This document shows positions 809-34,372 of a stretch of DNA of 64,000 bases, in pieces. The notes under the pieces were generated by a model. The model saw only the letters and a list, made by a program, of their open reading frames with translations. It was not told the DNA's origin and did no database searches. The position numbers were made by a program, and so were the translations under genes. Origin of the DNA: Lysobacterales bacterium (GTDB lineage Bacteria > Pseudomonadota > Gammaproteobacteria > Xanthomonadales > SZUA-38); contig JANQOZ010000015.1 in NCBI GenBank assembly GCA_028285525.1, positions 51,590 to 115,589 of the forward strand, in the 5' to 3' direction. Position 1 is the stretch's first letter. Every line of letters begins with the position of its first letter.

Positions 809-3067
809 TTGTTTATGTTTCGCCTGCTCGACCTGAATTCGCCACGCAACGCCTACATGCTGGGACTTGCCCTGATTGCAGTGCTGGTCACGCTGCAGTT
901 TGTTGGCATGCACGTGGTCACGAAACGTCAGGAAGTCTCTGCGATTGAAATCAACCTGTCGGGCCGCCAGCGGATGCTGTCTCAGCGCATCGCATGGACA
1001 ATGAACCGGCTGGCAGCCAATCCCGCATCTCCCGCCGAAGAAGCACGATTGCGCTCGCTGTTGGGCGTCTGTACCGATCTGATGGAAAGATCGCACCTCG
1101 CGCTTACCGGCAAGGTGCTAGCCGAATTGCGCGCCGTGCTGGACGCTGGCAGGCCGTGCCTGATGCTCGACGCCACTTCGCCTTTGCGTCTGCCGCTGGA
1201 TCGGGTCGATCTGCAGCAACCCGCCATCCTGGCAGACTTCACCCGGCAGGCATGGAAAGTTGCAGACGGGGAGGTATCACGTGAGGAGCTTGCGGAGCTG
1301 CCGGTTCCGTTGGAAGGGCCGCTGATCGAACTGCTGGATCAGCTGGATCGGGCGACGTTGGCGGCACAGGAGGCGTCAATCGCGCAGCTCAAGAAGCTCC
1401 TGTCACTCAACTGGGCCTTGATCCTCATCCTTGTCGTTGGTGAGGTGCTGCTCATCTTCAGGCCGATGGCGAGCGCCGTGGAACGCACTTTGAGTCGGCT
1501 GCGCGACGCCAACAAGCGCCTCAGGCTCAGTGAGACACGCTTGCAGGACTTTGCCAGTACCGCAGCCCACCAGTTCTGGGAAACTGACGATGAGCACCGT
1601 TTTGTTTCGATTGGCGCGTCCGACCCGAATGCCCGTCTGCACAGCGTGTCCTCCAGCCTCAAGCGACGGTTTTGGGAACTCGATGGTGTGCTGACGGACG
1701 AGCCGGGGGTGGATTGGGATGCGCACCGCGCAACGCTTGATGCCCGTCTGCCGTTCAACGGATTTGAGTATGCGGTTGAGGGGGCTGACGGCCACAAGGC
1801 ATGGTGGCGTGTCCACGGGCGGCCGGTTTACGCGGAGGACGGGCGCTTTCATGGGTACCGCGGCACCTCGCTTGAGATCACCAGTGAACGTGAGGCCGAA
1901 GAAAAAATGCGAACTTCCCAGCGCATGCAGGCTATCGGCCAGCTCACCGCTGGGGTCGCCCACGACTTCAACAATATCCTCGCCGTGATCCAGGGCAACG
2001 CAGACCTGATCCCCGGGGAGACTAGCAAAGCGGATCGGGAGGGGTTTGTTCGCGCCATTTCCGATGCAGCTTCCCGCGGCGCCTCTCTGACCCACCGCCT
2101 GCTTGCCTACGGACGCGTGCAGCGTTTGCATGCTGAGCCCGTTGATCTTGCTGACTTTATTGGCGAGCTGCAGACGCTGCTCGCGCGCACCCTGGGTGAA
2201 AACTTCACGGTGCAGGCAACGCTGCCGTCTGAGCAGCTGCACGTCTACGTCGATAGACATCAGCTCGAAGATGCCTGCCTCAACATTGCGCTCAATGCGC
2301 GCGATGCGGCAAGCGAAAGCGGCAAGCTCGAGCTAAGCGCCACCGTCGCCGATCGAGCCAAGGTTGCAGCGATGGCAAACACCGATGTCGAGCTGAGGGA
2401 CTACGTATGTATCTCCTTCTGCGACAACGGAAGTGGGATGCCGCAGAGCGTGCAGGACAGAATCTTCGACCCTTTTTTCACTACCAAGACTGTCGGTCGA
2501 GGAACGGGTCTCGGGCTGAGCATGGTGTATGGATTTGTGCTGCAGTCCAACGGCTTTGTCGATGTCTGCAGCGCTCCCGGTGACGGCACCACGGTCAGTC
2601 TCTACCTGCCACAAACGACCCGTAAAAGCAGCGCCCGGCCAGCGGCCGCACTCAGTGAACTGGATTTTGCCGAAAACAGATCCGCTCTTCTGGTTGAAGA
2701 TAACGACGCTCTGCGAACCGTCATGCGCCGCCATCTTGAAACGCTGGGTTTTACGGTTGTTGAGGCCGGCGACGGCGGCTCGGCCCTGGAGCGGCTGGAA
2801 CATGAAGAACATTTCGATGTCCTGCTACTCGATATCGTATTGCCGGGAGGCATTGACGGTATCGAGATCTTTCGCCGAGCAAGGCTTAAGGACCCAGACG
2901 TCAAAGTACTGTTCTGCTCCGGCTTCACGGGAATGAACGATCAGAATCAATCGCCGGAAAACGTGCCTGGCCCGGTCCTGCGCAAACCGTTCAACGTTGA
3001 TCAGCTCGTCAGCGCGCTGGCCGAGGTCTTAACTGAGGCTGCGGCGTTCCAATCTACCGGCTCCTAG
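809..3067 (+). CDS. Hybrid sensor histidine kinase / response regulator with PilJ/NarX-type N-terminal sensor and PAS domain
   Basis: 752-aa ORF. It has an N-terminal TM helix then LSGRQRMLSQRIA (PilJ-type sensor motif), a second TM, and a PAS-like region. H-box AGVAHDFNNILAVIQG; ATPase G-box GRGTGLGLSMVYGFV. The C-terminal receiver reads ALLVEDNDALR...DVLLLDIVLPGG...LRKPF. Confidence 0.9.
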   Translation: MFMFRLLDLNSPRNAYMLGLALIAVLVTLQFVGMHVVTKRQEVSAIEINLSGRQRMLSQRIAWTMNRLAANPASPAEEARLRSLLGVCTDLMERSHLALTGKVLAELRAVLDAGRPCLMLDATSPLRLPLDRVDLQQPAILADFTRQAWKVADGEVSREELAELPVPLEGPLIELLDQLDRATLAAQEASIAQLKKLLSLNWALILILVVGEVLLIFRPMASAVERTLSRLRDANKRLRLSETRLQDFASTAAHQFWETDDEHRFVSIGASDPNARLHSVSSSLKRRFWELDGVLTDEPGVDWDAHRATLDARLPFNGFEYAVEGADGHKAWWRVHGRPVYAEDGRFHGYRGTSLEITSEREAEEKMRTSQRMQAIGQLTAGVAHDFNNILAVIQGNADLIPGETSKADREGFVRAISDAASRGASLTHRLLAYGRVQRLHAEPVDLADFIGELQTLLARTLGENFTVQATLPSEQLHVYVDRHQLEDACLNIALNARDAASESGKLELSATVADRAKVAAMANTDVELRDYVCISFCDNGSGMPQSVQDRIFDPFFTTKTVGRGTGLGLSMVYGFVLQSNGFVDVCSAPGDGTTVSLYLPQTTRKSSARPAAALSELDFAENRSALLVEDNDALRTVMRRHLETLGFTVVEAGDGGSALERLEHEEHFDVLLLDIVLPGGIDGIEIFRRARLKDPDVKVLFCSGFTGMNDQNQSPENVPGPVLRKPFNVDQLVSALAEVLTEAAAFQSTGS

Positions 3068-3293: not shown

Positions 3294-5315
3294 CTACTCA
3301 AATCCATCGGCGAAAAGCAGGTCTCCTCCTACATCGAAGCCGACGCTTACCAGGTTGGCGTCATTGGCAAAGCCTCCGAGCGCGCCAATCGCGTCTGTGA
3401 TATCCACCTGCGGACCGGCGTTTCGAAATCGCCCATCCCACATGCGCAACGTCAGCTGCGCCGGTGTGCCGGTGAACTCTGGCTCCGGCACAAAGCGCAG
3501 TCGCGCTGATGGCGTTAGAACCAGGGCGCTTGCGTCGCTAACCTGCGGCACGTCCACAAATGCCCCGCCTTCGGAAAACTGCCAGCGCCCCTCGCCCGGG
3601 CTCTCCGGGTTAGCAACGACGGCGGCGCCGGCCAATGCATCCTGGTCTTCGTAGGTGTTCGCCAGTATGTCGGCAAGCGTGGGCAGGTCAGCTGGAGCGA
3701 GAGAAACCGAGCCAGCGCCGACACGATTTGTCCGAGCGCGGGGCGCTGCGTTGCCGAACACGATGTACGCTTCACCAGCGGTTTGTTGCGTATCGCTTCT
3801 GGCGTTTTGGGCGCCAACCAACAGGTCGTCGACTCCATCCTGGTTAATGTCGCCGGCGGCGCTAACCGAATTTCCCGCCCGATCAGAAGTATCGATCCCG
3901 GCCAGCACCAGGCCATCCCGGCCACTCAGTGCCGCCAATTCCAAACGCGCGGGAAAGCTGCCCGGGCGACCAAGCACCACAAATGCGCGCCCCGTTGCGG
4001 GGTCTGTTGCCGAATCGGCATCAGCACCGATTATCAAGTCGCTGAACCCGTCGCCGTTCACATCGCCCGCCAGGTCGACGTCGCCTCCGACACTGTCGCC
4101 AAGAGCCCCAACCAGCTGGAACCCGTTGCTGCCGTCCAGCGTGTCGAGCCGAAGCGACTCGGCCAACGGTTCTCGAGAGCCGAATACCACAAAGCTCACG
4201 CCGGCTACTGGCTGTTCGGCGCCTTTTGCTGCTGCGGGTGCTTCGGAGAAGGGTGAGCCGATCAGAATGTCGTGCAGCCCGTCGGCGTTTACGTCGCCGG
4301 CGTCGCTGACGGCCAATCCGGTTTCAAAAGCACTGCCCGTCAGCGTGATTCCGTTGGTCCCGTCAATGCTGTCCAGATCGAACGTGGCAGGAAACATAGT
4401 GTCGCTGGTGCCGAATACCAGATACACCTTGCCGCCACTTTCAACCCCGTTAGCTGTGGCCGACGGGTCTGAGATGATCAGATCGTCAATACCGTCACCG
4501 TTAAAGTCTCCTGCGCTTCCCAAATCCAGTCCGAGAAATCCCTCGGCGCTGACGTTTGGAATGATGAAGCCGTCTGCACCATCCAGGGCGGTCAGATCGA
4601 TGGTTGGAGGGAAGCCTTGGCTGGAGCCAAACAGAACGAAGACCTGTCCACCACCGGGTGCCGAAGGCGCGGCGATGGCGATATCGTCAAAGCCGTCGTT
4701 GTTGAGATCTCCAACGCCGTTGGCACCTCGCCCCAGGCGAGCAGAATCTGTGACTGGTCCGGACAGCACGAAGCCGTTTGAACCATCCAGCGTCGAGAGG
4801 TCGAAGGCCGCACCGAAGTTTTCGCTGGAACCGAATATCACGTACGCCTCGCCGTTCGATGCTGCGCCGCGGTCAGCGTTCTGCGCTCCAATGACCAGGT
4901 CGGGAAGGCCGTCACCGTTTATGTCCCCTGAGCCGTTCACCCGTCGCCCTAAGAATTCACCATTATTCAGACCTCTCACCGCAAACCCGTTGCTGCCGTC
5001 GAGGAGGGCTGTGTTAGTTGGAAGCGTTCCGCCGGGGGCGGCCCCAAAGATCACGAAGACCGCTCCCGGAGCGTTGAAATCTCCGTCGTCAGAGCCAATC
5101 GCGATATCATCGATCCCATCGCCGTTGAAATCACCGATATCCGTTAGGGCGATACCAAAATTGCTGAATCGAATATCTCGACCCACAACGGTAACGCCGG
5201 TGTCGTTGGACAGGTCTGCCAGCTGGAACAAGCCCTGCGCGAACCCAGGCTTGGGCCCTGCCAGCACAGTCGCAACGACCAGTAGAGGCATGATGGTGCG
5301 TAATGCGAAGGTCAT
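3294..5315 (-). CDS. Secreted FG-GAP repeat protein (seven-bladed integrin-alpha-like propeller) with extra C-terminal domain
   Basis: Signal peptide MTFALRTIMPLLVVATVLAGPKPGFAQ. Seven Ca-binding FG-GAP loops: GDFNGDGIDDIAIG, GDINGDGLPDLVIG, GDLNNDGFDDIAIA, GDFNGDGIDDLIIS, GDVNADGLHDILIG, GDVNGDGFSDLIIG, GDINQDGVDDLLVG. A roughly 150-aa C-terminal domain ends in LLFADGFE. Confidence 0.9.
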   Translation of the reverse strand: MTFALRTIMPLLVVATVLAGPKPGFAQGLFQLADLSNDTGVTVVGRDIRFSNFGIALTDIGDFNGDGIDDIAIGSDDGDFNAPGAVFVIFGAAPGGTLPTNTALLDGSNGFAVRGLNNGEFLGRRVNGSGDINGDGLPDLVIGAQNADRGAASNGEAYVIFGSSENFGAAFDLSTLDGSNGFVLSGPVTDSARLGRGANGVGDLNNDGFDDIAIAAPSAPGGGQVFVLFGSSQGFPPTIDLTALDGADGFIIPNVSAEGFLGLDLGSAGDFNGDGIDDLIISDPSATANGVESGGKVYLVFGTSDTMFPATFDLDSIDGTNGITLTGSAFETGLAVSDAGDVNADGLHDILIGSPFSEAPAAAKGAEQPVAGVSFVVFGSREPLAESLRLDTLDGSNGFQLVGALGDSVGGDVDLAGDVNGDGFSDLIIGADADSATDPATGRAFVVLGRPGSFPARLELAALSGRDGLVLAGIDTSDRAGNSVSAAGDINQDGVDDLLVGAQNARSDTQQTAGEAYIVFGNAAPRARTNRVGAGSVSLAPADLPTLADILANTYEDQDALAGAAVVANPESPGEGRWQFSEGGAFVDVPQVSDASALVLTPSARLRFVPEPEFTGTPAQLTLRMWDGRFRNAGPQVDITDAIGALGGFANDANLVSVGFDVGGDLLFADGFE

Positions 5316-8116: not shown

Positions 8117-9716
8117 GATTGGCTTTGTTTAGCGCGTCGATAGTCTGCTGGATTCTGTTCGCGCGTGAGGAAAATGGCCACGGCTGATCGGCTTGCCTTT
8201 CCGCGGCATCGTTCATTTCTTTTAAAACGTCCAGGTACTCGAAACCCAAAGCCGGATACGCGCTTAGAGCAAACAGCACGTCAAATGAGCCGCTGAACTC
8301 AGGATCGCGGAGAAGCGAAAAGACCCTCACGAAGAGCTTTCTCGCCATCGGTTCAGGGGGTTTCGTATGCAACATGGCTCTCAGCGCCTCGTAAGCGAGA
8401 TCGAAGTCAGCGGAATTGAGAGCGAGTTGCGTCAGTTCCTGGTCAACGCTCGCCTGGGCGATTCCATCTCTTGAGATCACGTCTGCAGGCCGAAGCCAAC
8501 CCCGTACCCTTAGCTTCGGGCGCGCCTTAAGAATTTCCAATATCGATTGCTCCCAGTGATCAGCGCTGCCGACGGGCCAGCCTTCATTGAGCGCGTGGAC
8601 GGCCAACAAGGCAGCTTCTGGATCAGCGGACTCCGCCAAAGCTTCAACGATTGGTCTGATGCGATAGAACTCACTGGTAGCTCGATCAGTTTCTTCCTGC
8701 CACAGGCCTATGTGAATATTCGGGTCGCGATAAATGTTCGGGTCGCGCGGCAAACCGAGTGGTGGCGGCGGAATCATCGGAACCATATCCGTTGTCCTGT
8801 GCCCGTAAAGCGAGGCCCACCGCTCGAACATGAATAGTGCGAGCTTTTGCACTTCGATGTCTGGGTACTGGAGGGCTGCTTCGAAGAAGTCTATGGCGGT
8901 GGCGCCCGCTGCGTCAGGTCGCATCTCCCGAGCTAGCCTGAGGACTGCGAGAGCTCTTCGAGGCTCTGCGTATTGCAGTTCCTTTATTGCCCAGCCGAGT
9001 CCAGCGATATCCAGCCACGCCTGTCTCGATTCTAAGCTGGGGGTGAGCAGGTCGAATAACTTTTCGGGCAACGTATCCAGGCATGGATGAACATCTCTGC
9101 GTCGTCCCATTTGCCAGATGTTCTCAACCTCGGCCAACGCATCCACGCATGCTTCTCGTGAGGCGAATAGATCTGCCGCTCCGCCCGATGTTGCTACAAA
9201 GAGACGGCCGACTTCGGTGCGACCGGGATCCAGCCTTTCAACCGTCTCCACAACGTACGTGCCACCAGGTTCAATGACAAAGACCATGGGGTTACGACGA
9301 TTGTCGGTGACAACCACCAGGTGTCGATTGCCAGTCGCCAGCTCGACCTGCTCGAATACGCTGATCCTGCCAACCCGGTCAGCTGTCAGCTCCTCCTCGG
9401 ACAGTGAAAGCGGGATTTCGGGTTGCAGGATGTTTCCGTTGATCATCAACTGTCCGACCAAATTGAAGTGCCCTTCGTTGCCGGTCGGTTCCCGGTTTAA
9501 CTCAAGAATGTCGAGGGTGACGTTGCCAAAGAACACCGGAAAGTGAGGCGGCAGACGCCAGCGCAGGGTCCCACCGGGAGAGGCGGAAACTATTGGAGCC
9601 TTGTCAGATCCAACAACTTCAGAGATCGGGGATGGCCCAGAAGCAACAGCCAAAACCGACAGCACGATAGACAGCAACGCTTCCATAGGTAGGTTGAGTG
9701 ATAATTCCGGCGTCAA
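8094..9716 (-). CDS. Hypothetical secreted protein (orphan operon gene A)
   Basis: 540-aa ORF with signal-like MEALLSIVLSVLAVASGPS. It has a beta-rich N-terminal half and a helical (HEAT/ARM-like by eye) C-terminal half. No family motif recognised. Confidence 0.6.
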   Translation of the reverse strand: MTPELSLNLPMEALLSIVLSVLAVASGPSPISEVVGSDKAPIVSASPGGTLRWRLPPHFPVFFGNVTLDILELNREPTGNEGHFNLVGQLMINGNILQPEIPLSLSEEELTADRVGRISVFEQVELATGNRHLVVVTDNRRNPMVFVIEPGGTYVVETVERLDPGRTEVGRLFVATSGGAADLFASREACVDALAEVENIWQMGRRRDVHPCLDTLPEKLFDLLTPSLESRQAWLDIAGLGWAIKELQYAEPRRALAVLRLAREMRPDAAGATAIDFFEAALQYPDIEVQKLALFMFERWASLYGHRTTDMVPMIPPPPLGLPRDPNIYRDPNIHIGLWQEETDRATSEFYRIRPIVEALAESADPEAALLAVHALNEGWPVGSADHWEQSILEILKARPKLRVRGWLRPADVISRDGIAQASVDQELTQLALNSADFDLAYEALRAMLHTKPPEPMARKLFVRVFSLLRDPEFSGSFDVLFALSAYPALGFEYLDVLKEMNDAAERQADQPWPFSSRANRIQQTIDALNKANRERTSTE

Positions 9717-9975
9717 GTTCCCAAACGGACGTAAGGGCGGAGTGGGGCTTCTAGATTTGGAGGATCGCCAAAACCGTTTCTCTACTGTGGAAAAACTGAA
9801 AATCGACGTCAGGCGATGAACTGCCGCGTATTTTCGCGTCGTTCCGGTTGCCGTGGCACCTCAAGATCAGCCCTAATCGTACTGACGCTGACGGCCCCTG
9901 GAATTCCAAACTTACCTGCGGACCTATTCAGCGAATTGAAAACCAGCGATCGGGCTCCTGGCTCGGCCGACAAAG

Positions 9976-10461
9976 GTGAGTCTTATGCGAGTCTCTACTA
10001 AATGGCGCGTACGGCGAATCGCGCTTTGCTTTGTTGGTCCACCTTTTCTTGGAGTGCTGTTTTTCCTGCTGACGCTACTCTTGGAGGGCGAAAAAATCCC
10101 GCTTCTTGAGTTGGTGAGGTTCGTCGTTTTGGGTACCTGGGTTGCTTTCATTTTCGTCTTTATGCAGGCGATGATTTATGCCGGCGTTATGGAGCTTTAC
10201 ATCATCCCGTACGTACGCAGTCGGCTGATGTTTTACTGTCTGAGCGGCATTTTGGGATATCTCGCTGGGTATTCAGTTGAACACTTTCAGTCTTTCAGAT
10301 CGATGACGTTGGTAGGTCTCTTGGTAGGTTTATCACTCGGGCCGGTGATGTTTTGGGCGTCGATAGACGTGAGAGCCATAATTTCTGGGGTCAGAGTAAA
10401 GGGACAGAGTAAACCGACAGCGAATTGCGGCGCGTTCTCACTGGGCTTCGGTCGTCGGTGA
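9976..10461 (+). CDS. Hypothetical 4-TM membrane protein
   Basis: Four hydrophobic segments (ALCFVGPPFLGVLFFLLTLLL, FVVLGTWVAFIFVFMQAMIYAGV, FYCLSGILGYLAGY, LVGLLVGLSLGPVMFW). The likely start is ATG 9985, preceded by AAGGTG. The last 25 codons are encoded by the left REP repeat, so the native C-terminus may have been replaced. Confidence 0.45.
   Translation: MSLMRVSTKWRVRRIALCFVGPPFLGVLFFLLTLLLEGEKIPLLELVRFVVLGTWVAFIFVFMQAMIYAGVMELYIIPYVRSRLMFYCLSGILGYLAGYSVEHFQSFRSMTLVGLLVGLSLGPVMFWASIDVRAIISGVRVKGQSKPTANCGAFSLGFGRR
10387..10413. repeat. REP element, left copy (GGGGTCAGAGTAAAGGGACAGAGTAAA)
   Basis: It is the perfect 27-nt inverted partner of 11156-11182. It contains an internal direct repeat CAGAGTAAA-GGGA-CAGAGTAAA. 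Confidence 0.85.
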
Positions 10462-10501
10462 TTCAGACTGAGTAACCTTAAGGCCGACGTAGGTATTGCT
10501 T

Positions 10502-11146
10502 ATGCCAAGACAACCCCGATTCTGCCCGGCGGGTCTGCCGGTCCATTTGATACAGCGGGGCAACAATCGACAGGTTTTGTTCACGTGCGATTCTGATCTA
10601 GCAGCTTATTCCAATTGGCTGGCGGATGGCGCCGAACGATTTGGCGTTTCGGTTCACGGCTGGGTTTTTATGACAAACCATGTGCACCTGCTGGCGACGC
10701 CTGACGAAGAAGACAGCCTCTCGAGATTGATGCAGTTTCTTGGACGCCTGTATGTGCGCCACTTCAATTACACCTACCAACGCAGTGGTACGCTGTTCGA
10801 AGGACGATTCAAATCTTGTGTTGTACAGGACGATCAATACCTTCTGAGCTGTCTTCGCTATATTGAGCTGAATCCGGTACGAGCAGGGATGGTTTCCGGC
10901 CCTGGTGACTATCTGTGGTCAAGCTTCGGCGCTCATGCTTTTGGCGTGCGACCGCGGATGTGGTCTCCCCACGATCTCTACTTGCAACTAGGATTAGATG
11001 AAAAGCAACGTGCGGGGGCTTGGCGGGCGTTGGTCCGCGATGCCCTGGACGCTGAGGTGCTGGCTAAGATCCGCCGTTGCGCTAACACCGGGTTGGTTTT
11101 GGGTACCGAGGCATTCCGACGACAGGTGGACAGGCTCAGAGAGTAA
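10502..11146 (+). CDS. REP-associated tyrosine transposase (RAYT; IS200/IS605 Y1 transposase superfamily)
   Basis: Sequence MPRQPRFCPAGLPVHLIQRGNNRQVLF... It has the HUH motif in TNHVHLLATP and the Tyr-helix region LRYIELNPVRAGMV, both typical of RAYT/COG1943 proteins. The ORF track starts at TTG 10496; ATG 10502 is more likely. Confidence 0.85.
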   Translation: MPRQPRFCPAGLPVHLIQRGNNRQVLFTCDSDLAAYSNWLADGAERFGVSVHGWVFMTNHVHLLATPDEEDSLSRLMQFLGRLYVRHFNYTYQRSGTLFEGRFKSCVVQDDQYLLSCLRYIELNPVRAGMVSGPGDYLWSSFGAHAFGVRPRMWSPHDLYLQLGLDEKQRAGAWRALVRDALDAEVLAKIRRCANTGLVLGTEAFRRQVDRLRE

Positions 11147-11155
11147 GCCGCTCTG

Positions 11156-11182
11156 TTTACTCTGTCCCTTTACTCTGACCCC
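11156..11182. repeat. REP element, right copy (TTTACTCTGTCCCTTTACTCTGACCCC)
   Basis: Perfect reverse complement of 10387-10413. Confidence 0.85.
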
Positions 11183-11205
11183 AGGAATTCTGACCCCAGG
11201 AATTC
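11176..11205. repeat. 15-bp perfect tandem duplication (TGACCCCAGGAATTC x2) at the outer end of the right REP
   Basis: 11176-11190 is identical to 11191-11205. Each unit holds the last 7 nt of the REP plus 8 nt of flank. Confidence 0.9.
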
Positions 11206-11323
11206 CGAGAGCTGGACAGCGAAGCCAGAGACTCAGCGGGCATACCGGAGCAGCCCCCGCGCTAAAGGTTTACCGCTCCCGGCCGTTAGGAGACGCAGCG
11301 TAGCAATGCGATGACGATCCGCC

Positions 11324-14300
11324 GTGAAACTCCACGCCCTTCTTCTAGCAGCCCTGGCCGCCGCCCTGGTAACCCCTCCGGCTGCCGGCAACACCTTGCC
11401 GCTCCTGGCCGATTCACCGTTTCGGATTTACTCGGTCGCCGAGGGGCTGAACCAGAAGACGGTTCATGCGGTCGTTCAGGACAACGACGGCTTCCTGTGG
11501 ATCGCGACGTTTGGTGGTCTTAACCGCTTCGACGGCCGCACCTTTGAGAGCCTTACGGCCCGCGAGGGGCTGCGCCAGAACCTGATTCAGGCGCTGCGTG
11601 TCGACGCCCAAAACCGGCTCTGGGCTGGCGACGCCGGCGGCGGCCTGACCCTGATTGAGAACGGCAAGGTTGTGCGCACGTTTGAGCCCGACGAAGCATC
11701 GCGTGGCGTGGTCCGGGCGATCATCGACGTCGGGGATACCCTGTACATCGGCTCGCAGCCGGGCGGAATCCGAACCTTGTCCCTGAACGACATGGATAGC
11801 GGGTTTCAGCATCTTGAGAACGCCCCAGACGAGATCTACACCATGGACCTCGCCGGCGACGACACGCTGTACTTGATCAGCCCAACCGGCCTTCAGCGGC
11901 TCACGGTGGAGGGCGGTGCAGTGTTCGAGGACGTCGGCAATAACCTGACGGCCGTTGCTACGGACCGGCAGGGTCGCGTCGCGGTCGGCGACGCCAACGG
12001 TCGTATCGGCTGGCTACGGGGCGATCGCATCGAATGGCTCGACGTCAACTATGAGGATCGGATCTCTGGGCTGGTCCTCGATCGAGGAACGCTGAAATGG
12101 GTCTTTCTCGAGGAGCTCGGTATGTTCCGATTCGGCGATAAGGACCCATCAGAGTTGGGCCTCGCCATCGCCGGCACCGCACAACCGCTGCGGGACCAGG
12201 AAGGCTTGTTCTGGGTCCCAACGCGAAGCGGACTGGCTCGTTACCTCGGTCCGCGTTTCGAACACTACTCGCTGGAGTTGGAAGGCAGAAGTCCGGAGGT
12301 GTTCGCTGTCCGCCCCGGAGTTGGCGACGATTACTGGTTTGGCACCAACTTAGGCCTTTTGTATCTGGACGGCGACGGCAAGTTGATCAACGTCTCTGAC
12401 GAGCTGGGTATCGATCGTCGCGAGGTGCGTGACATCAGAATCACGCGCGATGGCAGTACGTTGTGGTTTGGCCAGGTTCAGGGCGCCGTTCACGGCATCG
12501 ACCCCGTCACTCGAACCTTGCAAAAAACGTTAGCCGATGACACGTCCTTGACCGTTGGGCTGACGCTGGATCACCGCGACCGGCTATGGATCGGCTCATT
12601 CCTGGGCACGCTGACAATGCATGACCCGGAAACCGAAGAGACACGAACGTACACGATTGGCAACAGCGCGAGCGTGTATTCGCTGGACATGGCCGACGAC
12701 AGCTACCTCTGGTTCAGCGCCAATTTTGCGGGCGTTTTTCGCATCGACACGGACGATCCGGACGCCGAGCCGGAGCGGATGGCGGCCGAGGAGCAATTGC
12801 AGCAGGAGTACTACACGCACGTCGTCGCCACCGGCAGCGGCGAAGGCACGGATGTCTGGTTTTCTGGCATCAAAGGCAGCGTGTTCCGGCTACGCGACGG
12901 TGAGCTCAGCAGTGTATTTACGGAGTCGGCCCTGTCCAATGTGACGATGTATTCGATTCAGCCGCTGCCGGACAACAACCTCGTGGTCGCGACGAGTCGC
13001 GGCGCTTACCGCTATGCGCTCGACACCGATACGCTGGAGCGTTACGGCGCGCTGGACGGCTTCGTCGCGCTGGAATCCAAAGTACACGCGATGTACTACG
13101 ACGGCGGCGACGATCTTCTGATCGGGACGAGCAGCGGCCTCACGGTGATGGATCTGACCATACCCTTCGACGGCGTCACGGCACCGGCAGTGCAGATCAC
13201 CGCCCGCAGGGTCGATGGCCTCACGATCAACGGCTCCTCGTTGTTGGACGCCCTCGACTTCGATGAGGTTGTGATCGACTTCACCGCGGTATCGACGCGC
13301 AAGCCCGATGGTATTGAGTACAGCTATCAGCTTGCGGGCCATGACACAGCTTGGAGCGATGCGGCCAAGACCACGTCGATCTCGTACTCCAATCTGCCGC
13401 CCGGCGAATTTACCTTCGGTGTTCGGGCACGCCTTCCCGGCGGTGCATGGAGCTCAGCTGCCAGCTGGCAGTTCACGGTTCCAACGCCGCTGTGGCGCAC
13501 ACCGTGGTTCATCACGGCGGCCGTTCTCGCCACGCTGGCACTGGTCTGGTCAGCCGTCCAGCTGCGGCTCCGCTCGATTGCAAACGCCAACCTCCGGCTC
13601 CGGCAGGAAGTCGCGGAGCGGACCCAATCCATTGAGGCAGGCCGCCGCGAACTCGAGCTGATCAATGAGCAGCTCAGCAGTGAAATCTTAGAGCGAAAGA
13701 AATCCGACGCGCTGCGCGCCGAGGTAGAGGCGCGCTTTCATCAGGCCTACCAGAACTCGCCCATCGGTATGGCGCTGGTCGACACTGACGGCCTGGTTTA
13801 TGACGCGAATCCGCGGATGAAGGCGCTGTTTTGGCCTGAGTCGGACCGCGAAAAGCGCGAGCCGCTGCTCACCGTCGTCAGCGATGAGGATCGCGCCGAA
13901 TTTTCCGATTTTCTTGCGGACTACGCGGCCGACAGGGCGGAAGTGGCCAGTATGGAAGCGGGTTGTCTGGCCCACGACGGCGCGATCCGACGCATCGACT
14001 TCCACCCGTCGGCCGTCCGAAATCAGGACGGCGAATTGCGATACATCGTACTACTCGCGCACGACGTTACCGAGAATCGGGCGATGACCGATCAGCTTGC
14101 GTATCAGGCCCGCTTTGATGAGCTGACGGGGCTCGTCAATCGGCGCGCATTCGCCGAACGCCTGTCAGCGGTGAGCGAGGAAGACAAAGCGAGCGCCTAT
14201 TTGATGTTCCTCGATCTTGATCAGTTCAAGGTCGTCAACGATACGTGCGGGCACTCCGCCGGTGATGAGTTGCTGTGCATGGTCGCCGACGCGCTGCGTG

Positions 14301-15421
14301 CCTGTGTGCGCAAGGCCGACACGGTCGCACGGCTCGGCGGCGACGAATTCGCCATGATCATCGTCGGTTGTTCCGAAGACACTGCGCTGAAGCGGGCCGA
14401 GACCGTCCGGCAGCGCATTCAGGACCTGAAGTTTTTCTGGGAGAACGACGTATTCCGGGTCGGCGCGAGTATCGGCGTCGTGCCGATCGGCGCCGGATCG
14501 CGGGATCTCAATGAGCTACAGCAGTTGGCCGACGCCGCCTGTTACGCCGCTAAAGACGCTGGCCGCAATCGCGTGCACATGGTCACCGGTGCTGAGGATG
14601 AAGTGCATGCGCATCGCGGCGAGATGCGCTGGGTGCAGCGACTCAACCATGCCATTGACAACGAGAACTTCGAGCTGTTCGGCCAGCGCATACTGCCCCT
14701 GGCCGATCACAGCCAGTCAATCGAGCGGATCGAGATTCTGCTGCGCATGCGTGACCCGGTCACCCATCGGCTGATTCCGCCGGGCGCGTTTCTGCCTGCC
14801 GCTGAACGTTACGGTCTGCATGGGCGACTGGACCAATGGGTGGTTGGTCGAGTTATCGATTCGATGGTGGAGCAGCTCACCAGTGAGGTCGAGAACCGCG
14901 AGTTCTGGGTCAACCTCTCTGGCGCGAGTGTCGGCGACCCGACAGTATCGCGCGAACTGATTCGTATGGTCGAAGCGGCAGACTTGCCGCGCGGCAGCCT
15001 GAACTTTGAGATCACCGAAACCGCCGTAATCCGGAAGATCGGCGAGGCCAAGCAGCTCATCGCCGCGCTGCAGGAGATGGGTTGTCGGTTCGCACTGGAT
15101 GACTTTGGCAGTGGGCTGTCGTCCTTCAGCCACCTGAGGCAGCTAAGCGTCGACTGCCTCAAGGTCGACGGTCAGTTCATTCGCGATATCGGCAAAAACC
15201 CAACCGATCGCATCTTTGTAAAATCGATTATCGACATTGCGCACACGCTCGACATGAGCGTGACCACAGAGTTTGTCGAGGACGATGACATCTTAGGAAT
15301 CGTGCAATCGCTGGGCAGCGACTACGCGCAGGGCTTCGGTATTCACCGGCCGGAACCGCTTAGCGCGCTGGTCTCGACAACGACGGAGGTGCGGGTCAGC
15401 GGGTTGAATCAGTCGGCCTGA
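11324..15421 (+). CDS. Periplasmic two-component-regulator-propeller / Y_Y_Y sensor fused to PAS-GGDEF-EAL (c-di-GMP turnover protein)
   Basis: 1365 aa with signal peptide MKLHALLLAALAAALVTPPAAG. The N-terminus has a long beta-propeller repeat region and a Y_Y_Y-like segment (FTFGVRARLPGGAWSSAASWQFTVPTPLW). Then come a TM helix, a coiled coil and a PAS domain. The GGDEF site is RLGGDEFAMII. The EAL domain has EILLRM...FEITE...DDFGSG. Confidence 0.9.
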   Translation: MKLHALLLAALAAALVTPPAAGNTLPLLADSPFRIYSVAEGLNQKTVHAVVQDNDGFLWIATFGGLNRFDGRTFESLTAREGLRQNLIQALRVDAQNRLWAGDAGGGLTLIENGKVVRTFEPDEASRGVVRAIIDVGDTLYIGSQPGGIRTLSLNDMDSGFQHLENAPDEIYTMDLAGDDTLYLISPTGLQRLTVEGGAVFEDVGNNLTAVATDRQGRVAVGDANGRIGWLRGDRIEWLDVNYEDRISGLVLDRGTLKWVFLEELGMFRFGDKDPSELGLAIAGTAQPLRDQEGLFWVPTRSGLARYLGPRFEHYSLELEGRSPEVFAVRPGVGDDYWFGTNLGLLYLDGDGKLINVSDELGIDRREVRDIRITRDGSTLWFGQVQGAVHGIDPVTRTLQKTLADDTSLTVGLTLDHRDRLWIGSFLGTLTMHDPETEETRTYTIGNSASVYSLDMADDSYLWFSANFAGVFRIDTDDPDAEPERMAAEEQLQQEYYTHVVATGSGEGTDVWFSGIKGSVFRLRDGELSSVFTESALSNVTMYSIQPLPDNNLVVATSRGAYRYALDTDTLERYGALDGFVALESKVHAMYYDGGDDLLIGTSSGLTVMDLTIPFDGVTAPAVQITARRVDGLTINGSSLLDALDFDEVVIDFTAVSTRKPDGIEYSYQLAGHDTAWSDAAKTTSISYSNLPPGEFTFGVRARLPGGAWSSAASWQFTVPTPLWRTPWFITAAVLATLALVWSAVQLRLRSIANANLRLRQEVAERTQSIEAGRRELELINEQLSSEILERKKSDALRAEVEARFHQAYQNSPIGMALVDTDGLVYDANPRMKALFWPESDREKREPLLTVVSDEDRAEFSDFLADYAADRAEVASMEAGCLAHDGAIRRIDFHPSAVRNQDGELRYIVLLAHDVTENRAMTDQLAYQARFDELTGLVNRRAFAERLSAVSEEDKASAYLMFLDLDQFKVVNDTCGHSAGDELLCMVADALRACVRKADTVARLGGDEFAMIIVGCSEDTALKRAETVRQRIQDLKFFWENDVFRVGASIGVVPIGAGSRDLNELQQLADAACYAAKDAGRNRVHMVTGAEDEVHAHRGEMRWVQRLNHAIDNENFELFGQRILPLADHSQSIERIEILLRMRDPVTHRLIPPGAFLPAAERYGLHGRLDQWVVGRVIDSMVEQLTSEVENREFWVNLSGASVGDPTVSRELIRMVEAADLPRGSLNFEITETAVIRKIGEAKQLIAALQEMGCRFALDDFGSGLSSFSHLRQLSVDCLKVDGQFIRDIGKNPTDRIFVKSIIDIAHTLDMSVTTEFVEDDDILGIVQSLGSDYAQGFGIHRPEPLSALVSTTTEVRVSGLNQSA

Positions 15422-15471
15422 ATGAGCTGTCACCCATGAAAATCGGCGTCAGTTCTTGCAACGCTGCGTCT

Positions 15472-16692
15472 TTACGCCTTTTCTCCCTCTCGTTTTCTCA
15501 AGTGGCGAGAAGCCAAGCTCATCGCACCGACAGCCACGAGGCAGTATCCGCCTAACCAGTTCATTTGCCGGGGCAGATCGACGCCCCAATCGATCAGCGT
15601 ACCCGTGATGCCCGGTCCAGCAGCCGTTGCCAGCACCATGGCAGACACAATGACGGAGCGGATAGCGCCGAGATTCAGCACGCCATAGATCTCGGGCCAC
15701 AACGCGCCAAGGAGCGTGGATGAAACGCCATAGCTGATGCCGAGCAAAACCATCACCACAAACAGCGACCAGGCCGGGCCGCTGAGCGCCATGGCAAAGC
15801 AGGCGCAGGCCAGGGGCAGCAGGTAGAGCGGAAGGACACGCACCGCACCGATGCGATCGATTACTCCGCCCGTCACGAGCGCCATGCAAACCGTCGTGAT
15901 GGCCATGGGTATCAGTGCGCTCGGAAAGAGCTGGGGCGCCCAGCCGTTCAGGGTTGCGAGATAGTCCTGGTGGTAAAAGATTGTAGTGCCGATAAACGGC
16001 GGGGCCAGCACGCCGATCAACAGCACCCAGAATATCGGGTCACCTAAAACCTCGGCCCGCGTCCAGTTGCGGCCGACGAATCGTGGTTGGGGGTCGTCAG
16101 CGTGCTCATCGCCTGGTGCACGTGGCTTCCGGTAGGCCCAGGTTGCGAGCGGCAGGGCCACCAGCGAAAGAATGCCTGCCGCGGCCAGCCAACCAGCGCG
16201 ATAGCCGAACGCCAGAGACAGGCTCGCAAACGACAACGGCAGGGTGGCTTCGCCCGCCTGGTGGCCCAGCACCACCAGCGAGACGGCGCGTCCCCGGCTG
16301 GCGGAAAACCATCGTCCGGTAGCGGTCAGCGCGATATGGGTCATCATGCCCTGGCCGAGCAGGCGAAGTAGAAAAATGCCTACCGACAGCATCACCACCG
16401 AGTTCGCGAAGCCCGCCAGCACCGCTGCCCCGGCTAAGGAAATGACCACAAGGGCGACCAGCCGGTGCGTCGGCATCACGTCGACAAGGCGACCCACAAA
16501 CGGTAAACAGCAGGCGCTGGCCAGGGTCGCGAGCATGTACAGGCGACCGAACTGACCTTGGCTTAGGGCAAAGGCCTCCTGCCACTCCGCGACCGAAGCC
16601 GAAACAAAGTAGGTTTGCCCGAAGCTTGAGAATGCAGTGAGGAGGAAGCCACCCGCCAGCCAGCGGAAATTACGCTTTGCGAACGCGAGCAT
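15472..16692 (-). CDS. MFS transporter
   Basis: 406 aa with about 12 hydrophobic segments and the typical MFS loop GRLVDVMPTHR. No substrate can be inferred. Confidence 0.8.
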   Translation of the reverse strand: MLAFAKRNFRWLAGGFLLTAFSSFGQTYFVSASVAEWQEAFALSQGQFGRLYMLATLASACCLPFVGRLVDVMPTHRLVALVVISLAGAAVLAGFANSVVMLSVGIFLLRLLGQGMMTHIALTATGRWFSASRGRAVSLVVLGHQAGEATLPLSFASLSLAFGYRAGWLAAAGILSLVALPLATWAYRKPRAPGDEHADDPQPRFVGRNWTRAEVLGDPIFWVLLIGVLAPPFIGTTIFYHQDYLATLNGWAPQLFPSALIPMAITTVCMALVTGGVIDRIGAVRVLPLYLLPLACACFAMALSGPAWSLFVVMVLLGISYGVSSTLLGALWPEIYGVLNLGAIRSVIVSAMVLATAAGPGITGTLIDWGVDLPRQMNWLGGYCLVAVGAMSLASRHLRKREGEKA

Positions 16693-19968: not shown

Positions 19969-21339
19969 ATGCGTTTAACCATTCAGCGTCAGGGACGACA
20001 CTTTCAAACTCTCTTCGGTCTTATGGCCGCCAGCGTGGCATGGCCGCTGGTCAGCATGGCCCAGATTGAGCGGATCAGCGTGCCCAATGGCGGCGGTCAG
20101 GCGGACAGCGACAGCTACGTCGCTCAGCTGTCCGATGATGGCTCGGTCATCGTTTTTCGGTCCAACGCGGAAAATCTGATCGTGGATGACACCAACGGAT
20201 GGTCCGATATCTTCGTCCACGACCTGAACACCGACACGGTGGAACGAGTCAGCGTGTTAACCGATGGAAGTCAGAGCCCGCGTTTCTCGTCACATCCCTC
20301 AATTTCGGATGACGGCCAGCTGATCGTCTTCGAAGGCCGCCCGGTGACGAACACAGCCTGGCCCACAATCTTTGACCGCAGTGACGACAGCGTCCTGCAG
20401 CCCCTTCCGCGGCTGCAGAGCGGCAATCCGGCGAGCCCCCAGCGTGCGCGCAATGAGCCCCAGATTTCGGGTAACGGCCAGTTCCTCCTGTTCCATACCT
20501 GGGAGACGCTTCAAAATCTGTTCGACGTCGACGCGCGCCCGCCGAATGACGACAGCAACAGCGCTGACGACGTCTTCGTGTTCGACCTGACAGCAAGCCC
20601 CATCGAACCCCTTGATCGGGTCAGCCGCGATTCCAGCGGCAACAGCGTCGAAGGCGACAGCCTGTCGGGATCGATGTCCGACGACGGTCGCTACGTCACC
20701 TTTTTCTCGTACTCCAATGAGCTCGTGCCCAACGACCTGAATGGTCATGAAGATGTCTTTATCAAAGATCGCAATACCGGAACGCTTGAACTGGTCAGCG
20801 TTAGCACCGGTGGAGGGCCCGGTGATGCCGACAGCTATAACCCCATGGTTTCAGGAAACGGCCAATTCATCGTCTTTCGGTCGCTGGCAAGTGACCTGGT
20901 TACTGGAGACAGCAACGAGAGCTGGGATATTTTTGTGCGCGACCGCATCGCCCAGGTGACGCAGCGCGTCAGCGTTTCCAGCGCCGGCCTGGAGGGCAAC
21001 AACCACAGCTTTGAAGGTTCGATTTCCGACGACGGTCGCTACGTTACCTATCGTTCGGCCGCGTCCAACCTGGTTGCAGGCGACTCCAACGGCCGCTACG
21101 ACATCTTTGTGCACGACCTGACTCGGAGTCTGACCGAGCGCATCTCTACAGGCACAGCCGGGGAAGCGAACGGGAATAGCTTTGAGCCGGCGATCTCCGG
21201 CGATGGGCGCTGGATTGTCTTTGAGTCCGACGCGACCAACCTGGTGGCAGGAGACACCAACGAGGCGCGTGACATCTTTCGAGTGCCTAACCCGCTGTTC
21301 CAGGTGAGTAAGATCCAGACGACGGGAGCACAGCGATGA
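19969..21339 (+). CDS. Secreted PD40/TolB-like beta-propeller repeat protein
   Basis: Signal peptide ...AASVAWPLVSMAQ. The unit S(D/G)DG(R/Q)(Y/F)(V/I)xFxSxAxNLVxxDxNxxxDIFVxD is repeated about 7-8 times, e.g. SDDGRYVTFFSYSNELVPNDLNGHEDVFIKD. The stop overlaps the next start as ATGA. Confidence 0.85.
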   Translation: MRLTIQRQGRHFQTLFGLMAASVAWPLVSMAQIERISVPNGGGQADSDSYVAQLSDDGSVIVFRSNAENLIVDDTNGWSDIFVHDLNTDTVERVSVLTDGSQSPRFSSHPSISDDGQLIVFEGRPVTNTAWPTIFDRSDDSVLQPLPRLQSGNPASPQRARNEPQISGNGQFLLFHTWETLQNLFDVDARPPNDDSNSADDVFVFDLTASPIEPLDRVSRDSSGNSVEGDSLSGSMSDDGRYVTFFSYSNELVPNDLNGHEDVFIKDRNTGTLELVSVSTGGGPGDADSYNPMVSGNGQFIVFRSLASDLVTGDSNESWDIFVRDRIAQVTQRVSVSSAGLEGNNHSFEGSISDDGRYVTYRSAASNLVAGDSNGRYDIFVHDLTRSLTERISTGTAGEANGNSFEPAISGDGRWIVFESDATNLVAGDTNEARDIFRVPNPLFQVSKIQTTGAQR

Positions 21340-26221: not shown

Positions 26222-27280
26222 CTAAGCACCACAGGAGGCACGCACGATCAGCTCAGGCTCCATGACCTGCGACTCGTACTCGTCATGCTCAATTTGCCGC
26301 ACAACCAGATCGACCAGGTTTGCGCCGGCCAGAATGACGTCCTGTCTCATCGTTGAGAGGGGCGGGTTGCCGTACGCGGCCGCTTCAATATCGTCGAAGC
26401 CCATCACGCTGATTGTGCCGGGTACCGACAGCTTTCGGGTTTTCAGTTCCTGCAGAGCCCCCAGGGCAATCAGGTCGCTGGCGCAGACCAAACCGTCCGG
26501 TTCGAATCCCTCGTCCAGGAGCGTCTTTACCGCCTGCCGGCCACTCCCCTCACTGTTTTCCGCCGTGACCTGCGTCGAGCTGCCGCCGTCCAGACCCGCT
26601 GCCATCGTGGCCTTCCGGTAGCCCGCGTAACGATCGGCAAACTCGGGTGCCTGACCGGCCACCTTATTGCCGACAAAAGCGAGTCGCTGCCGGCCGTTGT
26701 CCAAAAGGTGCTGCGTGGCTCGGTAGCCGCCGAGCCGATTATCGCAGCCGACGTAGGAAGCGCGACCGAACTCCAGGCTGGGACCCCAGAGCACCCAGTG
26801 CGCCCCGTTTTCGCAAAGCCGTTCCAGCGTGGGATGTGAGTCGACGTAATCGCCATAGCCCAGGAGAATCAGCCCGTCTGCTCGATGCGCCTCCTCGTAG
26901 CGTGCATACCAGTCCTCTCCGGGTCTCTGCATCGACACCAGGAGGTCATAGTCACGCGCTGAGCACTCGCGGGTGATGCTCCCCAGCATCTGGAGAAAAA
27001 ACGGATTGATCGGCGACGCGGCGTCCGGTGCATCCTCAAACAGCAGCAGCGCCAGCGTCCGGGTGTTGCCCGAGCGAAGGCTGCTGGCGCTGCGGTCGAC
27101 CTGGTAGTTGAGCTCCGCGGCGATTTCCCGAATGCGTTTGCGCGTATCGGCGTTGACTAAAGGGCTGTCACGAAGCGCGCGCGAGACCGTGGCCTGAGAA
27201 ACACCGGCTCGGTAAGCAATGTCGAACGACGTCGGTTTTCTGTTGGGCATGGCAGGCGGGCCCTCGCAAGATGGACTCAA
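26222..27280 (-). CDS. LacI-family transcriptional regulator (probable maltodextrin-locus repressor)
   Basis: HTH KPTSFDIAYRAGVSQATVSRALR followed by a periplasmic-binding-protein-like sugar-binding core. The likely start is ATG 27250 (MPNRKPT). It is divergent from malQ. Confidence 0.9.
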   Translation of the reverse strand: MSPSCEGPPAMPNRKPTSFDIAYRAGVSQATVSRALRDSPLVNADTRKRIREIAAELNYQVDRSASSLRSGNTRTLALLLFEDAPDAASPINPFFLQMLGSITRECSARDYDLLVSMQRPGEDWYARYEEAHRADGLILLGYGDYVDSHPTLERLCENGAHWVLWGPSLEFGRASYVGCDNRLGGYRATQHLLDNGRQRLAFVGNKVAGQAPEFADRYAGYRKATMAAGLDGGSSTQVTAENSEGSGRQAVKTLLDEGFEPDGLVCASDLIALGALQELKTRKLSVPGTISVMGFDDIEAAAYGNPPLSTMRQDVILAGANLVDLVVRQIEHDEYESQVMEPELIVRASCGA

Positions 27281-27359
27281 GGGTGAGTTAAAAAAGTCCC
27301 CACGCCGGCCAGAGGCTAATACAAAAAGCGCTGATCGTCATATTCAGACTCCGGCGTTC

Positions 27360-27373
27360 TGAATACGTATGCA
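27360..27373. promoter_or_regulatory. Candidate LacI-family operator (TGAATACGTATGCA, CG-centred 14-bp palindrome)
   Basis: The half-sites TGAATAC / GTATGCA have one asymmetric position. The 16-mer TGAATACGTATGCAGG (27360-27375) recurs exactly, reverse-complemented, at 34308-34323. It sits between the divergent lacI-family and malQ genes. Confidence 0.65.
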
Positions 27374-31159: not shown

Positions 31160-31217
31160 GGTTGAGTTTTCTGCCTCGAAAGCCCCGCCTTCTAAGAGAG
31201 CTTCCCAAAGCCGGGGC

Positions 31218-31250
31218 AAAAAAAAGGGGCCCTCGCAGCGCGAGAGCCCC
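31218..31250 (-). terminator. Rho-independent terminator of the maltodextrin TonB-dependent receptor gene
   Basis: The hairpin GGGGCCCTCGC-AGC-GCGAGAGCCCC (31226-31250; 11-bp arms, one mismatch) is followed on the minus strand by an 8-U tract (the A-run at 31218-31225). It begins 30 nt after the stop at 31280. Confidence 0.75.
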
Positions 31251-31279
31251 TAGTGAGCCTACTAGTTTCTGCGGAAATG

Positions 31280-34243: not shown

Positions 34244-34309
34244 CTCGTGATTTGGACTGATCGTTCGCTATCACAGATTCTAGGAATGTGCTTTGAAACA
34301 GCAATGGCC

Positions 34310-34323
34310 TGCATACGTATTCA
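34310..34323. promoter_or_regulatory. Candidate LacI-family operator, second copy (TGCATACGTATTCA)
   Basis: Exact reverse complement of the site at 27360-27373 (16/16 identity over 34308-34323). It lies in the divergent TBDR/MFS promoter region, 50 bp upstream of the MFS start and 67 bp upstream of the TBDR start. Confidence 0.65.
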
Positions 34324-34372
34324 CTATTGAGTACGTCCGCTACAGCGCCCTAAGATCGAGCAAATCGCGAAA

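Follow-up and report, generated by a model that had tools for sequence, protein, structure and literature searches.

A short conserved element at the termini of unrelated exported proteins in Lysobacterales-type bacteria

Several systems for exported proteins use a terminal signature on their cargo. PEP-CTERM cargo carries a PEP motif, a transmembrane helix and an Arg-rich cluster at its C-terminus, and the cargo of sortase (LPXTG) and of rhombosortase (GlyGly-CTERM) carries a signature motif, a hydrophobic helix and charged residues. Cargo of the type IX secretion system (T9SS) ends in a β-sandwich of ~70-100 residues that is described by the models PF18962 or TIGR04183/TIGR04131; substrates of the type I secretion system (T1SS), including RTX proteins, lack an N-terminal signal peptide and have Gly-Asp-rich nonapeptides (PF00353) upstream of an uncleaved C-terminal signal; and the β-signal of outer membrane proteins (OMPs) is a C-terminal barrel strand that ends in an aromatic residue, usually Phe. 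For PEP-CTERM, LPXTG and the T9SS C-terminal domains, a dedicated machine has been found in each case, and these signals define the surface and secreted proteome of whole phyla. Here we describe a much shorter element, built around [DN]GFE, on three exported proteins encoded in a 64,000-nucleotide stretch of DNA from a Lysobacterales bacterium (contig JANQOZ010000015.1; hereafter the window), and compare it with these systems.

Two of the copies are C-terminal tails and the third lies directly after a signal peptide. The copies and the genes that carry them are:

3294..5315, minus strand: gene for an exported 673-residue FG-GAP protein (Pfam FG-GAP, E = 3e-40)
3297..3323, minus strand: C-terminal tail of the FG-GAP protein, DLLFADGFE by translation, with the core D-x-h-F-x-D-G-F-E
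3294..3296, minus strand: TAG stop of the FG-GAP gene, immediately after the terminal Glu, with no coding sequence beyond
47071..49305, minus strand: gene for an exported 744-residue protein with a proprotein-convertase P-domain and CarboxypepD_reg (Pfam matches; P0122, also 744 residues, is 100% identical)
47074..47097, minus strand: C-terminal tail of the P-domain protein, IVFENGFE, followed by a TGA stop at 47071..47073
21336..26159, plus strand: gene for an exported 1607-residue He_PIG / Big_9 / FG-GAP / PASTA protein (Pfam), hereafter the giant protein
21336..21413, plus strand: predicted Sec signal peptide of the giant protein (MSKVTRRPRRFLPVVIAALCCHQADA), with a basic n-region, a hydrophobic core and A-x-A read from the sequence
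21426..21449, plus strand: N-terminal copy in the giant protein, EILSDGFE, 4 residues past the predicted signal-peptide cleavage site

The FG-GAP protein, which is identical to P0001, consists of a signal peptide, seven FG-GAP repeats, a C-terminal β domain and the tail; by translation it ends GGDLLFADGFE, with the codons for LFADGFE at 3297..3317. The P-domain protein ends PNQIVFENGFE (NGFE codons at 47074..47085), and the giant protein reads CCHQADA, then IDCGEILSDGFEND past the signal peptide (DGFE codons at 21438..21449). Translation thus confirmed the positions and sequences of the three peptides as first proposed, except that the range 21429-21449, which had been assigned to EILSDGFEND, spans ILSDGFE and not all ten residues. 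The giant copy has Leu where the tails have Phe (ILSDGFE versus LFADGFE and VFENGFE), and since Phe occupies that column in 35 of 50 giant orthologues, the alignment of the three window copies holds. Judged from their sequences, the three peptides appear to be copies of one conserved terminal element with the core D-x-[ILV]-[FL]-x-[DN]-[GS]-F-[ED]. At the other end of the P-domain gene, the start of its longest open reading frame (ORF; TTG, 49389) overlaps that of a divergent penicillin-amidase gene (GTG, 49267); because P0122 starts at 49305, both of these starts are probably too far upstream.

The original prediction held that such a recurrence was unlikely to be due to chance, and the counts agree. 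A six-frame scan found [DN]GFE four times in the entire 64-kb window: two are exact C-termini, one directly follows a signal peptide, and the fourth is internal (NGFEY in a sensor kinase, 1757..1768). The 39 window proteins together have 19,442 residues, and their amino-acid composition predicts 0.43 copies overall and 0.00086 copies at exact C-termini; the probability of at least two exact C-terminal copies is 3.7e-7, and that of at least two terminal copies given four occurrences is 2.4e-5. These composition-based probabilities, together with the recurrence of the element in other genomes (see below), led us to reject chance as an explanation.

The terminal residues, whose lack of conservation had been named in advance as the finding that would count against the prediction, are kept: each of the three proteins has orthologues that retain them, and the tails persist down to 32-43% identity. 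The full-length FG-GAP orthologue P0089 (43% identity) ends IIGETIFEDGFE, its last residues being GETIFEDGFE. The P-domain protein has few relatives, and every full-length one has the tail at its exact end: NQIVFENGFE in P0123 (81%), NQIIFSNGFE in P0124 (38%), NQVIFANDFE in P0245 (37%), VFVNGFE in P0247 and VFASGFE in P0248 (32%). In two further relatives, P0246 and P0249, the tail is followed by 2-6 extra residues. By phmmer, the orthologues with F-x-[NS]-[GD]-F-E at the exact end are 81, 41, 37 and 32% identical to the window protein. For the giant protein we aligned 50 full-length orthologues, many of them NCBI-named Wenzhouxiangella, at ~50% identity; these names put the window within or close to Wenzhouxiangellaceae. 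The Phe of its DGFE, F37, is the sole invariant residue among positions 1-85, and the columns of the N-terminal copy read [IV], [LIM], F (35 of 50, otherwise L), [VIL], D (22) or N (21), S (25), G (16) or R (9), F, E (43, otherwise D or Q) and G, so that the conserved unit is longer than the DGFE tetrapeptide. The extreme C-terminus of the giant orthologues is conserved too, as (G)FAVFVANFVPT(R/S)E(E/D).

Beyond the orthologues, we searched a collection holding one genome per GTDB species with the pattern TTC-GCN-GAY-GGN-TTY-GAR-TRR, that is, FADGFE followed by a stop or Trp, and obtained at least 120 loci. At least 70 matches are FADGFE plus stop at the end of a long ORF; 62 of these are of Lysobacterales type and 8 come from unclassified Proteobacteria, and none of the 45 listed FADGFE matches from other taxa ends a long ORF. 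The Lysobacterales-type carriers include Dokdonella, Aquimonas, Rhodanobacteraceae, Ahniellaceae, Chiayiivirga, Tahibacter, Rudaea, Pseudofulvimonas and Wenzhouxiangellaceae, among others. Upstream of the listed tails, Asp stands at position -9 in 38 of 69 and Ile, Leu or Val at -7 in 65 of 69, which extends the motif to D-x-h-F-A-D-G-F-E; the FG-GAP tail of the window matches this extended form exactly. In the same loci, variants outside the search pattern occur 24 times at C-termini versus a handful of times elsewhere, nearly all of them 0-5 residues from the stop (IFNDGFE, LFANGFE, IFTNGFE, IFRSGFE, VFADGFESD and LFASGFEP are examples of terminal variants that the pattern did not select). 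The predicted terminal enrichment of the motif therefore holds in the sampled related genomes, both in the FADGFE-plus-stop scan and in the variants that it did not select. The tail also recurs among homologues of the window proteins: 9 of 119 FG-GAP homologues have it, as do 15 of 148 remote ones matched through the P-domain or the N-terminal domain, often right after a P-domain (WCL....hFxDGFE).

Several loci contain two tail genes, and several metagenome-assembled genomes (MAGs) gave two to four loci in the genome scan. Locus L002 holds three tandem FG-GAP/DUF11 paralogues and a fragment (9131..16491), all ending DPVAQFADGFED(D/S), which shows that tail-bearing genes have been amplified locally. 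The window also encodes an IS200-like transposase of the Y1 type (PF01797; 10496..11146, plus strand), which may be a REP-associated tyrosine transposase; homologues of it (L002 8178..8654; L049 800..1255) adjoin the tail-bearing FG-GAP paralogues in L002 and also occur in a Lysobacterales locus.

Synonymous codons that differ at the wobble position are used throughout the motif (GAC/GAT, all four Gly codons, TTC/TTT, GAG/GAA), and no conserved sequence lies past the stop; selection therefore acts on the peptide, and the stop is genuine. Free variation at the wobble positions and in the hydrophobic codon before the motif led us to reject a DNA-level repeat or recombination site, and a read-through or frameshifted downstream domain was rejected because translations past the stop show no conserved continuation; past the stop of the window FG-GAP gene, the next feature is the end of a convergent gene, 226 nt away. 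Tail genes in Lysobacterales-type loci (L011-L130) stop with TAG in 26 cases, TAA in 10 and TGA in 20 (n = 56), compared with TAG 77, TAA 27 and TGA 225 for other ORFs of the same loci (n = 329), so TAG is enriched in tail genes (Fisher p = 6e-4). TGA is the leakiest stop codon, and its depletion would fit selection on the exact C-terminal end.

Of 63 tail proteins taken from the loci, nearly all have a Sec or twin-arginine (Tat) signal at the N-terminus, and 54 of the 63 match 62 different Pfam families, including DUF5122 and PD40 propellers, β-helix/NosD proteins, peptidases M14, S8, M28, M12B, CotH, DUF1501 and GSDH. A second copy of the motif in the same protein was found in none of 113 tail ORFs, and no complementary motif was found at the opposite end of the tail proteins. 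The element is under protein-level purifying selection, portable between unrelated families and present in one copy per protein; it is restricted to free termini, save where it opens a jelly-roll domain, and it is lineage-restricted.

Upstream of the giant gene in the window lies:

19969..21339, plus strand: PD40 β-propeller gene (Pfam PD40), without a tail

The PD40 gene and the giant gene overlap by 4 nt (ATGA) and form a conserved gene pair. Homologues of the window PD40 protein in Lysobacterales loci end IFADGFE (tail-bearing ORFs in L051, L117, L091 and L014, by tblastn and clustering). The order of the pair is kept in a relative in which P0173 is a mis-called read-through of both genes; P0173 as a genuine PD40-giant fusion was rejected because its start is mis-called.

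We modeled two of the window proteins with AlphaFold2, as monomers. In the FG-GAP model, built on a 40-sequence alignment and with a mean predicted local distance difference test score (pLDDT) of 85.6, the last strand covers residues 655-658, and residues 661-673, which include GGDLLFADGFE, fall below a pLDDT of 50 and have no secondary structure. The giant model covered the first 355 residues with the alignment of 50 orthologues; its signal peptide forms a helix at 12-19 with low confidence, residues 21-45 are coil with a pLDDT of ~50, and the first Ig-like domain begins near residue 47. Being highly conserved yet unstructured in the monomer, the element behaves like a short linear interaction motif and not like part of a fold.

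The original prediction offered, with appropriate caution, two roles for the motif, a recognition tag (for secretion, processing or anchoring) and a module-boundary strand. The former is the best fit to the disordered tail, the 62 Pfam families, the export signals and the lineage restriction. We regard as probable, if far from certain, that the element is a flexible recognition tag read after export by a shared partner, in sorting, retention or processing. Lysobacterales/Wenzhouxiangella-type bacteria would append it to Sec- or Tat-exported proteins, usually as the last residues and occasionally directly after the signal peptide. Once across the inner membrane, many different exoproteins would present it to one shared partner that reads it as a linear tag and sorts, retains or processes them without a membrane anchor, much as cargo is marked by KDEL, by PEP-CTERM or by T9SS C-terminal domains. 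One possible reader is a machine for secretion or retention whose genes lie elsewhere.

A known secretion or sorting signal in disguise could also place a conserved peptide at the C-terminus of exoproteins, and homologues of the FG-GAP protein often have RTX repeats (PF00353) in the slot that the tail occupies. PEP-CTERM, GlyGly-CTERM, LPXTG, the T9SS C-terminal domain, T1SS/RTX and the OMP β-signal were each excluded on sequence criteria, however, and we consider the chance that one of them accounts for the tail to be very slight. The protein stops at GFE with no transmembrane helix or basic cluster, as had been predicted for the difference from PEP-CTERM, LPXTG and GlyGly-CTERM: a C-terminal classifier found no tail protein with a transmembrane-plus-basic end, PEP-CTERM has no NCBIfam match, and zero residues follow the motif where LPXTG and GlyGly-CTERM cargo would continue. 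The three window proteins lack a match to the T9SS models and a C-terminal domain of ~80 residues, the tail being 7-9 residues long and disordered. They have signal peptides, in keeping with the N-terminal Sec/Tat signals of the carriers, and no PF00353 repeats, which many FG-GAP homologues do have. Their last residue is Glu and not aromatic, on soluble multidomain folds (FG-GAP propeller, P-domain) that do not suit an OMP β-signal. No Pfam or NCBIfam sorting-domain model matched at E up to 10, and in searches at that threshold with the three proteins and with isolated short and long tails no model covered the motif, the sole weak match being NF033675. A PDB sequence search with the long-form peptide (see below) gave chance-level matches (a WD40 hairpin and HasA, E about 0.16-0.29). 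A full-text literature search with the motif strings and with sorting signals in these taxa found nothing, which is no proof that the element was never described. What does characterize it is a core lying 0-5 residues from the stop or directly after a signal peptide, on Sec/Tat-exported proteins, and conserved in orthologues.

A scan of metagenomes for I-F-A-D-G-F-E with any continuation, which returned at least 120 loci and 121 listed matches, showed that the window peptides are the short, Lysobacterales-type form of a longer element. The 121 listed matches are distributed as follows:

9 of 121: exact C-terminal end
24 of 121: 1-5 more residues before the stop
43 of 121: 6-25 more residues before the stop
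11 of 121: ORF shorter than 100 residues, treated as chance
34 of 121: elsewhere

The 6-25 class continues mostly for exactly 12 residues, SGDxSxWSxxVP and then the stop, giving a 19-residue C-terminal element, hFxDGFE-SGDxSxWS-xxVP-COOH, which is widespread in metagenomes and environmental bacteria. In the genome scan, long-form tails occur in Thermoanaerobaculia MAGs (L026, L099, L115). The original prediction overlooked that the tetrapeptide belongs to a longer conserved core, D-x-[ILV]-F-x-[DN]-[GS]-F-E, and that this core is a truncated form of the 19-residue element. The 34 matches elsewhere include spurious-looking ORFs, three copies that immediately follow a signal peptide and about eleven that are internal. 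Several of the internal ones (L158, L160, L175, L200, L192) open a repeated jelly-roll-like domain of ~210 residues with the pattern IFADGFESGNLSAWSSS..GGDLSVS...RYRARFYFDPN...GTYYFDxFESRR and no Pfam or NCBIfam match, and a choice-of-anchor J domain begins at one metagenomic internal copy (NF038128, E = 6.6e-9, with the alignment starting at residue 5); IFADGFESG..W is the opening pattern of the internal-copy domains. In L158 (1..6456, minus strand), L160, L175 and L200, the ~210-residue domain begins IFADGFESGNLSAWS, ends GTYYFDxFESRRxxYIGP and is repeated in tandem with Pro-rich linkers; in L158 these domains seem, by eye, to lie downstream of an RHS/YD-repeat-like region. The long tail also matches the first 22 positions of NF033675 weakly (E = 0.09), and a MAM-domain end with its tail aligns through the tail region to the InhA-like_MAM and rhombosortase-dependent M36 profiles.

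This kinship gives some support to the second proposed role, a module-boundary strand, in that the motif resembles strand 1 of choice-of-anchor J/MAM jelly rolls and of the ~210-residue domain. One mechanism, itself compatible with a tag, would have the tail act as the orphan first strand (in the long form, a hairpin) of a MAM/choice-of-anchor J/LamG-like jelly roll, donated by non-covalent β-augmentation to a protein lacking that strand, so that exoproteins are assembled on a scaffold. The internal IFADGFESG..W copies that open the ~210-residue domain and the choice-of-anchor J domain, the NF033675 match and the profile alignments through the tail are all consistent with it, as is a tail that is predicted to be unpaired in the monomer models. 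No acceptor domain without its first strand was identified, however; the conserved VP of the long tails is absent from the jelly-roll domains, making these tails a separate class; and seven residues are short for stable complementation. Of a full choice-of-anchor J/MAM-like domain (~160-190 residues), the window copies have just the first strand, and NF038128 and PF20773 do not match the window proteins. Overall, we view strand donation as possible but unlikely.

The same kinship raises the question of whether the motif is a functionless stub, left where a downstream jelly-roll module once began and was lost by domain loss or shuffling. The motif does begin modules in multidomain proteins, its end points are nested (after E, after W and after VP), and TAG, the stop enriched in tail genes, can be reached from the Ser codon TCG by one substitution. 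A stub would not be expected, however, to stay at the exact end down to 32% identity while its flanks diverge, nor to end at least 70 independent proteins at the same residue or to keep F37 unchanged across 50 orthologues. The long tails end in a conserved VP of their own, and no continuum of longer remnants was seen, both of which speak against simple domain decay. Because of this conservation we consider a vestigial stub quite improbable.

The original prediction had suggested looking for a co-occurring, dedicated peptidase or transporter; none was found among the gene neighbors. The recurrent neighbors of tail genes are regulators (Ser/Thr kinases with TPR, SARP-like proteins, histidine kinases) and generic ABC ATPases. 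Ser/Thr kinases are the commonest neighbors that are not themselves tail genes, in 19 of ~240 loci (including L022, L024, L028, L031, L035, L038, L050, L051, L108, L123, L248 and L251), and in these loci they carry TPR repeats. The kinase gene in L251 has an extracytoplasmic function (ECF) sigma-factor gene directly upstream, and a window kinase with Pkinase and FGE-sulfatase domains (44328..46307, plus strand) belongs to the recurrent set. Kinases and ECF sigma factors may regulate these exoprotein genes.

Two exported peptidases are encoded in the window as convergent neighbors, an S41-family peptidase with an IRBP-like N-domain and no detected PDZ domain (37741..38811, plus strand) and an S10-like serine carboxypeptidase (38880..40439, minus strand). 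Both families are known to act on C-termini; neither gene of the pair neighbors a tail gene.

A peptidase does adjoin one tail gene. A protein with a signal peptide, MORN repeats and a Peptidase_C13 domain is encoded divergently next to the gene for P0124, the P-domain orthologue with 38% identity (L251 2127..3842, minus strand; L252 1246..2961, minus strand), and the sequence shows its His and Cys catalytic motifs, LTSHGG and SACFSGG. A legumain-type (C13) cysteine peptidase of the periplasm could cut after the Asp or Asn (Asx) of the motif and free Gly-Phe-Glu, with the protein trimmed or passed to an amine acceptor, and a cut N-terminal copy would expose a Gly-Phe acceptor. The hallmarks of transpeptidation by asparaginyl endopeptidases (AEPs) are Asx at P1, a small P1', a hydrophobic P2' and an N-terminal Gly acceptor (PMC8106488), and most copies of the motif fit this pattern: Asx is present in 43 of 50 N-terminal orthologue copies and 56 of 57 tails, followed by a small residue (G or S) and then the invariant Phe. 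Such a reaction would account for a motif found on both free termini, once per protein. The adjacency is a single case, however, with no C13 homologue in the window or in the other ~240 loci; about 14% of the N-terminal copies and several tails (FRSGFE, FASGFE, FQSGFE, LGSFD) lack Asx; and the strongly conserved upstream D-x-h-F is atypical of AEP recognition. We therefore give Asx processing or ligation little weight. A more far-reaching form of it, for which we would claim slightly less still, is a C13-like Asx transpeptidase in the periplasm that cuts hFx(D/N) from G-F-E and joins the Asx to an amine acceptor, as an anchor-free sorting and ligation system. The acceptor might be a Gly-Phe-Glu N-terminus, produced by cutting an N-terminal copy like that of the 1607-residue PASTA/Ig/FG-GAP protein. 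If so, diverse exoproteins would be covalently tethered to a scaffold and the same motif would be regenerated at each junction.

Several points weigh against a recognition tag read by a shared partner. The function is taken from the pattern alone, disorder in a monomer model is weak evidence, and neighborhood clustering of about 240 loci revealed no dedicated peptidase or transporter recurring beside tail genes. A structural origin is plausible, since the motif also serves as an ordinary first strand in jelly-roll domains. Reading of the free carboxylate is hard to reconcile with C-termini that fall at three discrete points (after E, W or VP), and the N-terminal copies fit it poorly as well. 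Finally, the two collection scans each list at least 120 loci, for one codon-restricted variant of the motif.

Elsewhere in the window, positions 26222..37391 form a maltodextrin/starch utilization locus, with genes for a LacI-family regulator, a GH77 4-alpha-glucanotransferase (MalQ), an alpha-amylase, a TonB-dependent receptor and two major facilitator superfamily (MFS) sugar transporters.

Activated sludge, soil and marine sediment commonly harbor Lysobacterales-type bacteria. The carriers of the element span proteases, propellers, β-helix proteins and adhesin-like giants, with the long form in metagenomes and in Thermoanaerobaculia MAGs. The window contributes three clear examples, and one of them, on the conserved PD40-giant gene pair, is of the rare N-terminal kind. 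If the element is a sorting, retention or processing tag, it would represent an unrecognized step in how diderm bacteria handle proteins after inner-membrane crossing and would bear on how the cell chooses which proteins to secrete or to display on its surface. A simple sequence rule that predicts this exoproteome would follow, as would a small tag for engineering. If it is structural only, it would still be a useful annotation feature for module boundaries.

How the element compares with known systems can be set out directly. With PEP-CTERM, GlyGly-CTERM and LPXTG, as these are usually defined, it shares a lineage-restricted C-terminal signature on signal-peptide proteins of many unrelated families, encoded by genes that are dispersed and not clustered with machinery. 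It differs from them in its length of 7-19 residues, in lacking a transmembrane helix and basic tail, the protein ending at the motif, in occurring also at a mature N-terminus and in having no sortase-like enzyme linked to it. Strand 1 of choice-of-anchor J (NF038128) and MAM-like (PF20773) domains has the similar pattern h-F-x-[DE]-G-F-E-x-G-...-W, whereas in the window the C-terminal copies are followed by a stop and the N-terminal copy by an Ig-like He_PIG domain; the window motif is, moreover, unstructured (AlphaFold2, N-terminal copy), and the long tails end in VP. The Asx-small-hydrophobic pattern can be compared with the omega-site of the glycosylphosphatidylinositol (GPI) transamidase, an enzyme of the C13 family. 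Plant AEP sites likewise have Asx, a small residue and a hydrophobic residue near the C-terminus, a short leaving peptide and a product with a Gly-Phe N-terminus (PMC8106488), but here the enzyme is linked by one adjacency, Asx is not invariant, the upstream residues are conserved and the compartment is the bacterial periplasm. The resemblance to the eukaryotic signals KDEL and SKL (PTS1) is conceptual only, as these belong to another kingdom and to other compartments; like them, the element is very short, lies at the exact C-terminus, has an acidic or defined last residue and is portable across unrelated proteins. It is best filed as a new, anchor-less addition to the terminal cargo tags of other systems.

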